From positions 174,078 to 238,077 of the forward strand of contig MHOA01000001.1 of the NCBI GenBank assembly GCA_001821765.1: a stretch of DNA of 64,000 nt, written 5' to 3'. The notes under the pieces were generated by a model. That model was not told the DNA's origin, did no database searches, and was given only the letters and a program-made list of their open reading frames with translations. Positions 26,405-28,167 of this stretch are shown piece by piece. Each line of letters begins with the position of its first letter. The stretch's first letter is position 1. The DNA comes from Candidatus Ryanbacteria bacterium RIFCSPLOWO2_12_FULL_44_26 (GTDB taxonomy: Bacteria > Patescibacteriota > Minisyncoccia > Ryanbacterales > HO2-45-13). The position numbers and the translations under genes were made by a program.

Positions 26405-27532
26405 TTATTCGACCTTTTGAAAAATCTCAGGCCGTTCCAGCCCCCCTACAATAAGCTCGCCAACGGCGCCTTTATCAATAGCTCGCGAGAGACTATGGTC
26501 AACCAAAAGATATTTTCCGGGGACTTCAACCCTGAACTCCGTTATCATGGCACCGCCCGGCGGCACAATGGTAGTTTGCACATTTCGATGAGGCGGAGAA
26601 ATAATATCTCCTTCGGGATATAGTTTGTCGAGTATCCCGCCGATGACATGGAAATTCGAAGCAATATGCGACCCAACGCCAAAGAATATACGGATTGTTT
26701 CTCCGACATTTGCCTCGAGCGCATTTTCGCCCGTAAGCGCGCCAACCCGACCGTTGAAGGCAAAATACTCCGGCTGTTCCTGTTGCAGTTTTTCCAAACT
26801 GAATGCTTGATGGCCTTTCTCGCCAACCTTGCCTGCTGTATACCATTCGCCCTGCATGATATAGTATTCGCGGTCAACCTTCGCGAGCCCCTCTTTTGGC
26901 TCAACAAGAATCATTCCGTACATGCCATTTGCGACATGTGTGGGAATGTGAGGGCTTGCGCAATGGTACACATAAATGCCCGGACGCGTCGCATTGAACT
27001 GGAATGCGCGCGTTTCCCCGGATGCGACTTGTGTCAATACCGCTCCGCCGCCGGGGCCTTCAACTGCGTGCAGATCAACGGAGTGTTTGGCGTGGCCCGC
27101 CTCGGCATGCTCGTCCGATCCTTCGGCGTGGTCGCCGTTCGCATAGGCGGGGGGAGCGATTAGAGCATCAACAACAAACGAATGGGAGGATGCTGCGGTA
27201 TGATGATCTCCTTGGCTATGATTCAGGCGAATTTCTACAGTATCTCCTTCTTTCACTCGAATGAATGGCCCGGGTACGGTGCCGTTATAAGTCCAGTATT
27301 CATAAGTTACCCCGGGTGCAAGTTCGGCGATTACTTCTTTAGTTTCAAGTTCCACGACTACTTTTTTGTTTTCTCTCCTTACAATAGGAGACGGTAAATC
27401 ATCGGCGTGTTTGCTGATGTCGCTTACGCTCACCGGCTTTGCCGCCGGGGATATCTCACGCGTAGTTTTATACGCAATCCCAACTCCAATAATAAGAATG
27501 ATAATACCAACAAAAATCCAAACCTTTTTCAT
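26405..27532 (-). CDS. nirK: copper-containing nitrite reductase (NirK), membrane-anchored
   Basis: 375 aa with an N-terminal TM. It has the type-1/type-2 Cu ligand blocks 'HSVDLHAVEGPGGGAVLTQV' and 'GIYVYHCASPHIPTHVANGMYGMILVEP'; the canonical NirK blocks are 'HNIDFHAATGALGGG' and 'YHCAPEGMVPWHVTSGMNG'. It also carries a His-rich insertion. Confidence 0.85.
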   Translation of the reverse strand: MKKVWIFVGIIILIIGVGIAYKTTREISPAAKPVSVSDISKHADDLPSPIVRRENKKVVVELETKEVIAELAPGVTYEYWTYNGTVPGPFIRVKEGDTVEIRLNHSQGDHHTAASSHSFVVDALIAPPAYANGDHAEGSDEHAEAGHAKHSVDLHAVEGPGGGAVLTQVASGETRAFQFNATRPGIYVYHCASPHIPTHVANGMYGMILVEPKEGLAKVDREYYIMQGEWYTAGKVGEKGHQAFSLEKLQQEQPEYFAFNGRVGALTGENALEANVGETIRIFFGVGSHIASNFHVIGGILDKLYPEGDIISPPHRNVQTTIVPPGGAMITEFRVEVPGKYLLVDHSLSRAIDKGAVGELIVGGLERPEIFQKVE

Positions 27533-27551
27533 AGCGATTTATTCTTCCAAA

Positions 27552-27583
27552 GATCGTGGAGAATCCGGCAGGACTCCACGATT
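27552..27583 (-). promoter_or_regulatory. perfect 10-bp inverted repeat (gATCGTGGAG-N12-CTCCACGATc) 20-50 bp upstream of nirK ATG
   Basis: Read directly. It lies between the ArsR-like reading frame's end (27599) and the nirK start (27532). Geometry matches a 12-2-12-type winged-helix operator. Confidence 0.45.
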
Positions 27584-27598
27584 TTCGGATCGGCTATT

Positions 27599-27832
27599 TT
27601 ATAATATACATTGAGTCCGTTCCGCCGCACGGTGACCAACCGTGCCGTGACGGAGAACCGCAAGGTGCTGCGATACATTGGCTTTGGGGAGTTTAAGAGT
27701 CTTCACAAGTTCTTTCACTGCCAGCTCTTTTTACTTGAGTAAATTCAAAATCTCAAGCCGTTTGGGATTAGCGAGTAGTTTATAGATGGTGGCGTTACGC
27801 TCGTACGTTATTTTAGGAAATGATGATTTCAT
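27599..27832 (-). pseudogene. ArsR/SmtB-family HTH regulator interrupted by an in-frame TAA
   Basis: The minus-strand frame reads 'MKSSFPKITYERNATIYKLLANPKRLEILNLLK*KELAVKELVKTLKLPKANVSQHLAVLRHGTVGHRAAERTQCIL*'. The ArsR signatures 'LA(D/N)PxRLxIL.LL' and 'SQxxVSxHLxxLRxxGxV' are both present, on either side of the stop at 27733..27731. Track ORF 27731..28018 is the upstream half with a spurious N-terminal extension. Confidence 0.5.
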
Positions 27833-27935
27833 GGTTCGACGCCGCTCACCATGAATCCTGAGCTTGTCGAATGGATTCATGGTTCGACGCCGCTCACCAT
27901 GAATCCTGAGCTTGTCGAATGGATTCATGGTTTCG
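27828..27935. repeat. 48-bp tandem repeat x2.2, each unit containing the hairpin ttcatggt-N12-accatgaa and an ATG on the minus strand
   Basis: The unit ttcatggttcgacgccgctcaccatgaatcctgagcttgtcgaatgga is repeated at 27828, 27876 and partially at 27924. The most downstream unit supplies the ArsR-like gene's ATG. Confidence 0.8.
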
Positions 27936-28026
27936 AAACCACATGGTACGATTAAATCATACCACATCCAAGATTCTCCGCAAAATAGGTTTTGACTTTT
28001 TTGAAAAGACACCACCAAATTAAATA

Positions 28027-28072
28027 TGTGGACCGGATGAGGTTTGAACTCACAACCTCCTGCATGTTCCGA
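28027..28072 (-). other. tRNA-like 3' fragment (T-arm GTGAG-TTCAAAC-CTCAT + acceptor 3' strand CCGGTCC-A) without a 5' half
   Basis: Minus strand GGAGGTTGTGAGTTCAAACCTCATCCGGTCCACA. It shares the terminal GGTCCAC with the adjacent tRNA-Ala, and no complementary 5' acceptor strand is present. Confidence 0.25.
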
Positions 28073-28167
28073 TGTGCAAAGGTGGACCTAGGGAGAATCG
28101 AACTCCCACACCCCGCGTGCAAGGCGGGCGCACTACCATTATGCTATAGGCCCACCTTTGCACATCG
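28069..28167. repeat. 16-bp inverted repeat (cgatgtgcaaaggtgg / ccacctttgcacatcg) exactly bracketing tRNA-Ala
   Basis: Read directly. It extends the acceptor helix to a ~23-bp continuous stem. Confidence 0.7.
28081..28153 (-). tRNA. tRNA-Ala (anticodon TGC)
   Basis: Minus strand GGGCCTATAGCATAATGGTAGTGCGCCCGCCTTGCACGCGGGGTGTGGGAGTTCGATTCTCCCTAGGTCCACC. Acceptor GGGCCTA/TAGGTCC, anticodon stem CCCGC/GCGGG with loop CTTGCAC, and T-arm GGGAG-TTCGATT-CTCCC. Confidence 0.85.

Follow-up and report, generated by a model that had tools for sequence, protein, structure and literature searches.

Does the ArsR-type gene ahead of nirK in the genome of a Candidatus Ryanbacteria member, an uncultured groundwater bacterium, still encode a regulator, and what is the tandem repeat in which its start codon lies? 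These questions were addressed on a stretch of 64,000 nt of contig MHOA01000001.1 (assembly GCA_001821765.1), hereafter the window, in whose coordinates all positions are given (Table 1). L-numbers designate compared contigs or loci and P-numbers homologous proteins. The ArsR locus yields no full-length ArsR, and in our reading it is probably a recently inactivated arsR-type repressor gene that heads an arsR-nirK pair in this Candidatus Ryanbacteria population.

Two lesions in arsR ahead of an intact nirK

The first-pass annotation had described an ArsR-like frame on the minus strand, directly upstream of nirK and interrupted by an in-frame TAA, with its end at 27599 and a short C-terminal wing. 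The frame, its stop and its neighbour were borne out. When the stop was masked and one G removed, the repaired translation of 100 aa matched the ArsR/SmtB family above the curated cutoffs of Pfam HTH_5 (1.5e-14, 54 bits against 22) and NCBIfam NF033788 (88.3 bits against 55). Moreover, it aligned end to end and without gaps with hundreds of Patescibacteria proteins of 97-101 aa, the best of which, at 84-87% identity, span the positions of the stop and of the frameshift described below. The downstream gene is an intact open reading frame (ORF) whose product scored 321.7 bits against the TIGR02376 equivalog cutoff of 296.3. NCBI names this protein Candidatus Ryanbacteria nitrite reductase, and the catalytic motifs HSVDLH, YHCA...H....M and FHVIGG were seen by inspecting its translation.

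The closest homologues, which the first-pass annotation had proposed to compare at the stop, carry a sense codon there. Glutamine was found in all five of them and CAA in the DNA of L001 and L003, so that the TAA at codon 34 is explained by a single C-to-T transition. Across 120 homologues this column is variable (E, N, K, Q and others) and always occupied by a sense codon. The end of the gene had been misplaced because a frameshift was missed: the window reads CGTCAC-G-GCACGG at codon 63 where its relatives read CGTCACGCGCG, and the DNA of L001 and L003 lacks the extra G. The wing is intact, and it merely appears short because the extra G moves it into another frame. The C-terminal 38 residues lie in the ORF 27529..27678, and the true C-terminus RLVTVRRNGLNVYYKIADPKIVESCRILHDLWKNKSL ends at the TGA 27529-27531 (wing and C-terminus together: ARLVTVRRNGLNVYYKIADPKIVESCRILHDLWKNKSL). 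The frame followed originally runs, past the TAA at codon 34, into a TAA at 27601-27599.

Two single-base lesions in a metagenome-assembled genome (MAG), judged from assemblies, may be sequencing or assembly errors in a gene that is intact in the cell, an option which the first-pass annotation had left. The lesions were therefore compared at seven representative loci (two NCBI MAGs, two JGI metagenomes and three ENA assemblies) picked from an exact-sequence look-up of the window NirK. This look-up matched 48 blocks of the assembly collection, and all 23 contigs read from these blocks carried a NirK-identical protein. Both the TAA and the extra G were present in seven of the seven assemblies, which stem from different samples and different assemblers, and an uninterrupted frame of about 100 aa was found in none of them. 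In addition, the ORF ended by the TAA (…LEILNLLK, then stop) is recorded on at least 35 contigs (20 + 9 + 6). With both lesions in seven assemblies and the ORF ended by the TAA on at least 35 contigs, sequencing error is ruled out as their source. About 7 kb around the locus was nearly invariant among the assemblies and without other errors, the sole differences being one single-nucleotide polymorphism and a 48-bp indel, and a search of 5.8 billion clustered sequences gave no intact protein that exceeds 87% identity. We regard an intact gene hidden behind errors as highly improbable.

Programmed readthrough had also been mentioned before. Readthrough or reassignment of the TAA combined with programmed frameshifting would give a full-length ArsR, and the doubly repaired protein does look functional, as it departs from the consensus at 2 of 45 strongly conserved columns. 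However, the orthologues have an ordinary sense codon at this variable position and no frameshift, and the stop is not conserved. TAA terminates 26 of the 38 long open frames in the window, and the neighbouring GIY-YIG gene ends in TAA as well, so that the genetic code is the standard one. No slippery sequence was seen at CAC-GGC-ACG, and two independent recoding events within 100 codons would be unprecedented. As TAA is the main stop of this genome and a frameshift is present in addition, recoding is implausible, and we give it next to no credence.

The two deviating columns (P4S and P87S) are within the range of intact homologues, which depart from the consensus at zero to six columns. The inactivation is therefore recent, and prolonged relaxed selection was rejected on the same grounds. 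The suggestion of a recent pseudogene thus held: a TAA replaces CAA, all assemblies agree, and both lesions appear fixed in this population. A tBLASTn search revealed no second arsR in the window. Biologically this decay is fairly ordinary, being that of a pseudogene of a known family beside a known enzyme.

A palindromic element at the start codon of arsR

The start codon of arsR lies in a 48-bp unit that had been counted at 2.2 copies, and Tandem Repeats Finder gave the same result (period 48 bp, 2.2 copies, 100% matches, 27828-27932). Each unit had further been described as an 8-bp hairpin around an ATG. The hairpin was recovered with longer stems, as its arms (ACCATGAATCC/GGATTCATGGT) pair over 11 bp, and the ATG belongs to the stem and not to the loop; other pairings, which leave loops of 12 nt, exist as well. 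The 34-mer hairpin occurs twice where zero occurrences are expected by chance. For the leader of 166 nt the RNA fold reached -61.5 kcal/mol (z = -6.0) and the DNA fold z = -4.8.

The window reads TGGTTTCGAAACC-ATGAA (27941-27924), followed by 96 nt (2 x 48) and then by ATCATCATTTCC, which is the normal continuation MKSSFP. The empty site of L008 is GGTTTCGAAACTATGAAATCACC, and the window has GGTTTCGAAACCATGAA + 2 x 48 nt + ATCATC. Because relatives with an empty site lack the 96 nt, the repeat is an insertion right after the native ATGAA. Together with the native one, three in-frame ATGs result (27928, 27880 and 27832), since each unit has TCGAACCATGAA at its end and so forms the start context anew. 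A unit of 48 nt equals 16 codons and is in frame and stop-free. The insertion alone need therefore not inactivate arsR.

Variable copy number had been proposed as a point to check, and on contigs two alleles were found. One unit is missing from L088 and L094, which are among the seven assemblies compared. The 1-copy ORF (62 aa, including NCBI OGZ49922.1) was found on 20 contigs and the 2-copy ORFs (78 and 65 aa) on 15, while ORF forms with zero, three or four copies are not on record. Apart from copy number, the near-identical 7 kb show no structural difference.

The repeat could accordingly be a functional leader whose copy number tunes the operon, either by hairpins that expose or hide the ATG or by an in-frame N-terminal repeat of 16 aa. 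This would agree with the in-frame and stop-free unit, with an ATG in the context CGAACCATGAA in every arm, with alternative pairings that leave 14- or 12-nt loops in a very stable fold, with a sole structural difference in near-clonal surroundings, and with the single copy ahead of an intact arsR in L095. However, the element is absent from most relatives, as it was found in two lineages among about 80 arsR loci, it also occurs in the non-arsR context of L097, and only 1- and 2-copy alleles were seen. With regard to phase variation, the unit is in frame and copy number is one or two, and the arsR that follows is inactivated already. Tuning of ArsR is therefore moot in the window genome, and we hold a tuning leader to be rather unlikely.

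An exact 24-mer of the unit was found in four JGI metagenome contigs only (L095, L096, L097 and L098). Three of them (L095, L096 and L098) carry the arsR of another species, intact, with 72% DNA and 74% protein identity, and with one copy of the element at the same position (…GCAACTATGAA/TCC…TCGAACCA/TGAA/ATCACC). The fourth, L097, is an unrelated GC-rich contig with the element between an SH3-like gene and folD. Across the three contexts the element is 88-90% identical, and its 44-nt core (TCCATTCGACAAGCTCAGGATTCATGG…TCGAACCA) is flanked by TGAA in the window, L095 and L097, as expected of a target-site duplication; empty sites were found in L003 (80% DNA identity), L008, L009 and L010. Its ends form imperfect terminal inverted repeats (TIRs; TCCATTCGAC / GTCGAACCA), and the whole unit is a dense palindrome.

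Alternatively, the unit would have arisen in place, through a template switch or a fold-back that duplicated the start region of arsR, and would not be mobile. The 3' end TCGAACCATGAA of the unit differs little from the native sequence around the start, TCGAAACCATGAA, each hairpin has the native ACCATGAA as one of its arms, and microhomology could explain why the same site was hit in two arsR lineages. Nevertheless, the same 44-nt core, loop included, is present in the unrelated L097, the alignment over about 55 nt extends to palindromic elements of many unrelated contigs which already hold TTCATGGTTCGAC, and the element keeps 90% identity across two arsR genes whose own identity is just 72%. 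We consider an origin of the unit in place, without mobility, very unlikely.

The mobile interpretation is consistent with features shared by miniature inverted-repeat transposable elements (MITEs) and by repetitive extragenic palindromic (REP) sequences and bacterial interspersed mosaic elements (BIMEs). The unit is 44 nt long and non-coding, has imperfect TIRs (T-CCA-TTCGAC ... GTCGAA-CCA) and a strong hairpin, is accompanied by a 4-bp TGAA duplication in three contexts, and has a patchy distribution with tandem doublets. It differs from MITEs in being smaller than most of them and in occupying a single locus in 64 kb. It also differs from REPs mobilised by REP-associated tyrosine transposases (RAYTs), as no GTAG head is present and neither a RAYT nor another transposase was found in the window.

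Besides, the core shares CCTGAGCTTGTCGAA, TTCATGGTTCGAC and GCTCACCA(C/T)GAA with palindromic elements of 55-85 nt in IMG/VR contigs. CCGTTCG stands at a fixed offset in 13 of the 130 IMG/VR matches to a 14-mer of the loop, against an expectation of much less than one. In our interpretation, the unit is a compact, MITE-like representative of this widespread and apparently unnamed palindromic family, whose IMG/VR members differ from it in showing no obvious target duplication. The IMG/VR elements, seen at L099, L131, L143, L173, L180, L203 and L208 near the CTGAGCTTGTCGAA match, have the form CCGTTCG-NCC-TGAGCTTGTCGAA-GGN … TGG-TTCGACAGGCTCA-CCA-CGAACGG. Their inner boxes are conserved, their closing triplets are variable and complementary, and they lie on many unrelated contigs. 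A search of Rfam at permissive thresholds with the locus and six loci of related palindromes returned only the tRNA, and a full-text search of a literature library for the four core DNA strings and the spurious peptides gave only incidental matches, among them TTCGACAGGCTCA in two unrelated papers, and no description of the element.

A second and unrelated element of about 77 nt was observed at the ATGAAA start site of other arsR genes (L001 3940-4035; L015 2415-2500; L016 2425-2500). It has 14-bp terminal inverted repeats (CCCCGTTAGAAATT … AATTTCTAACGGGG) and (A/G)TGAAA flanks, and when read in frame it gives the 'KISNG' N-terminal extensions of P0003, P0025, P0065 and P0066. Given this second element, the start codon of arsR looks like an insertion hot spot. 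A wider proposal would be that the start and operator site (…TTTCGAAACT-ATGAA…) of a Patescibacteria-wide ArsR family is a recurrent landing pad for small palindromic elements, at least two unrelated ones of which use it, that the 44-nt element belongs to an undescribed cross-phylum family, and that its copy dimorphism could switch arsR-nirK. Taken as a whole, we think this proposal unlikely.

Candidate operator, regulator family and neighbouring features

The palindrome that the first-pass annotation had placed between arsR and nirK as the likely operator (27546-27589) is part of the coding sequence. The arsR TGA (27531-27529) overlaps the nirK ATG as ATGA (ATGAAAAAG), so that no intergenic space exists between the two genes. 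The repeat lies within codons 82-95, and its complementarity derives in part from the conserved, antisense-like codons of IVE and LHD; it was therefore rejected as an intergenic operator. It retains 13-14 of 15 pairs only in L001, L003, L008, L010 and the window, which are those with nirK or another multicopper oxidase directly after arsR. In the remaining family mostly 6-9 of 15 pairs are found, and the kept pairs include ATC/GAT versus ATT/AAT changes. Instead, this hairpin may form in the mRNA and have to do with how the gene that follows is translated.

A better operator candidate, judged from sequence, is the palindrome at the native start codon. When up to three mismatches were allowed, 34 of 77 distinct upstream regions contained the family motif ATAnTTTCGAAACTAT(G), compared with 1 of 373 controls, and the motif overlaps an ATG in 41 of 55 sites. 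Examples are ATAGTTTCGAAACT-ATGAAA (L009), GGTTTCGAAACT-ATGAAATCACC (L008) and ATACTTTCGAAAGTAT-ATG (L078). From about -16 to +3 of arsR, L003-L087 show ATA(C/G/A)TTTCGAAACT-ATG, the left half of which doubles as a -10-like CATACT/TATACT. This resemblance suggests that the mRNA is leaderless or has a very short leader, with an operator at the start codon, and we infer that the palindrome, in the form ATAGTTTCGAAACTAT, is a candidate autoregulatory operator on a very short leader. More distant arsR members have an AGTTGCA-N6-TGCAACT palindrome further upstream. A scan for sigma-70 promoter and terminator consensus sequences near the locus gave one weak site, which is below chance expectation.

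The nearest solved relatives of the repaired ArsR are the winged-helix repressors PagR, HlyU, Rv0081 and SmtB of the ArsR/SmtB family. PagR (2zkz) aligned over residues 8-92 (E = 1.5e-13) and HlyU (3jth) over residues 14-95. Both PagR and HlyU are family members without a metal site. In the repaired protein no alpha3 CXC motif was seen; a single invariant Cys88 and the conserved His56, His62 and His92 are present. As in many members of the family, the gene heads its presumed target gene and adjoins a palindrome. In contrast to them, its frame is broken twice and gives no working member, and the candidate operator, a 16-bp palindrome on the start codon, differs from the classical ArsR 12-2-12 site.

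A nirK or another multicopper oxidase gene comes directly after arsR in L001, L003, L008, L009, L010 and L015, and in the closest relatives the two genes overlap by 4 nt or are separated by 3 nt. Beyond these, the downstream gene is heterogeneous across 80 relatives, and no family-wide regulon can therefore be named. The GTDB species-genome collection contains at least 580 confirmed relatives of arsR. Metal-related neighbours occur in some relatives, namely multicopper oxidases and, in L021, L035 and L038, CsoR-like repressors (RLKILEGQVRGL…CIDIITQ). The arsR of L095 is accompanied by a small Cys/His-rich protein (…CAMCGHEHGKDGKCACGCGK) and by a small membrane protein containing His. Such gene neighbours hint at copper, or some other metal, as the signal sensed by the family. 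Upstream of arsR, L001 has two apparent tRNA genes, judged by eye, ahead of arsR-nirK, and L003 has an rve integrase and a Y1 transposase; the palindromic element is absent from L003.

We know of no nirK pairing among the described ArsR regulons. In denitrifiers and nitrifiers, nirK is controlled by regulators of the NnrR/NsrR type. The window resembles these systems in having a dedicated transcription factor gene adjacent to nirK, and it differs from them in that the regulator is ArsR-type, overlaps nirK translationally, is a pseudogene and has no evident features for sensing nitric oxide or nitrite. The nirK genes of the Candidate Phyla Radiation (CPR) form their own clade and have conserved copper ligands (Danczak et al. 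2017, PMC5581439). The window enzyme is of the same kind and from the same superphylum; that paper mentions neither a regulator nor the gene context of CPR nirK, and the linkage to arsR and its decay are not described there.

Within NirK, a His-rich insertion of about 40 aa (GDHHTAASSHSF…DHAEGSDEHAEAGHAK; residues 108-149, window 27086-27211) is located just before HSVDLH. It is of variable length, is common to the nirK of L001, L008 and L010, and is probably the reason why TIGR02376 matched in two stretches. An imperfect 27-bp tandem duplication (two copies, 81% matches, region VVVELETKEVIAEL) was seen in 5' nirK at 27319-27371; it is in frame and probably harmless.

Further upstream, a tRNA-Ala(UGC) gene (28081-28153, minus strand) lies inside a 21-nt inverted repeat with 95% complementarity (window 28070-28167), by which the acceptor stem is prolonged on both sides, into leader and trailer (CGATGTGCAAAGGTGGGCCTA … TAGGTCCACCTTTGCACATCG). 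This pairing is unusually long and may be relevant to processing. A fragment resembling a tRNA 3' half (T arm and acceptor strand, GAGTTCAAACCTCATCCGGTCCA; 28028-28054, minus strand) follows tRNA-Ala at a distance of 27 nt and matches the 3' end of that tRNA at 70% identity. The fragment may be an integration-site remnant. No further copy of it or of the tRNA-Ala 3' end was found in the window, and there is thus no evidence for island boundaries.

Table 1. Positions of the arsR-nirK features in the window
Feature	Position	Strand	Remarks
nirK	26405..27532	-	375 aa, N-terminal membrane anchor, intact; TIGR02376
arsR pseudogene	27529..27832	-	100 codons, stop and 1 extra base; homologues at 84-87% identity; NF033788
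Inverted repeat, arsR codons 82-95 (P-K-I-V-E … L-H-D-L-W)	27546-27561/27574-27589	-	Operator of the first-pass annotation
+1 frameshift, codon 63	27645..27646	-	One of two G bases is extra
In-frame TAA, codon 34	27731..27733	-	Gln in five closest homologues; CAA in L001 and L003
Copy 2 of the 48-nt unit	27828..27875	-	Last bases give ATG 27830-27832 heading MKSSFPK
Hairpin 2	27848-27883	-	Structure identical to hairpin 1
Copy 1 of the 48-nt unit	27876..27923	-	44-nt palindromic core TCCATTCGACAAGCTCAGGATTCATGGTGAGCGGCGTCGAACCA + TGAA; missing in 1-copy allele
Hairpin 1	27896..27931	-	11-bp arms 27921-27931 and 27896-27906; 14-nt loop ATTCGACAAGCTCA
Native start context	27926..27941	-	14-bp perfect palindrome TGGTTTCGAAACCA (27928-27941) overlaps native ATG 27926-27928

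Proposed history and meaning for nirK regulation

By analogy with known ArsR/SmtB repressors, intact orthologues would autoregulate the arsR-nirK transcript via the start-codon palindrome. In the history that we propose, a 44-nt palindromic MITE-like element would have inserted after the native ATGAA and duplicated TGAA. The unit would then have doubled in tandem, probably by slippage or by unequal exchange between AACCATGAA direct repeats, leaving 1-copy and 2-copy alleles that coexist. The CAA-to-TAA change at codon 34 and the insertion of one nucleotide at codon 63 destroyed the frame. With the repressor lost, the promoter would no longer be under ArsR control, and nirK would be expressed without its repressor. 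Moreover, the normal translational coupling of nirK to arsR would be lost, and with ribosomes halted at codon 34, some 200 nt short of nirK, translation of nirK would rely on its own weak GGAAG site.

Several points weigh against this interpretation. The evidence is at the level of assemblies from related aquifer samples throughout, and 'fixed' is meant for this population only. Samples of the Rifle aquifer underlie GCA_001821715.1, GCA_001819715.1, JGI 3300002105 and 3300025311, and ERZ27254749. The operator, the role of ArsR as a repressor and the effect on nirK expression are all proposals, and the mobility of the element is inferred from its three contexts and from its family resemblance. 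In the 64-kb window the element occupies one locus only, and neither the Y1 transposase nor the rve integrase of L003 had a tBLASTn match there. A protein-word search with translations of the repeat matched only Ryanbacteria ORFs, which indicates that the compact variant is rare. The aligned 1-copy contigs are MEGAHIT k141 contigs, and for those two the assembler may have collapsed the repeat; however, the repeat of 105 nt is shorter than k, and the NCBI MAG record OGZ49922.1 also has one copy.

To our knowledge, almost nothing has been learned of how CPR/Patescibacteria regulate their genes, and nirK belongs to the few respiratory-type genes of these bacteria. A dedicated ArsR-type regulator gene, with a palindrome at its start codon, is translationally linked to nirK or another multicopper oxidase in the closest relatives. 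A tiny palindromic element, kin to a widespread and apparently unnamed repeat family, targets the start of arsR and varies in copy number. Current ideas are not overturned by these observations; they provide testable handles in the form of the operator, the natural variants with zero, one or two copies and with intact or dead arsR, and a candidate MITE-like family. The loss of the regulator in one well-sampled population that has kept nirK intact is a concrete instance of regulator loss during genome streamlining.

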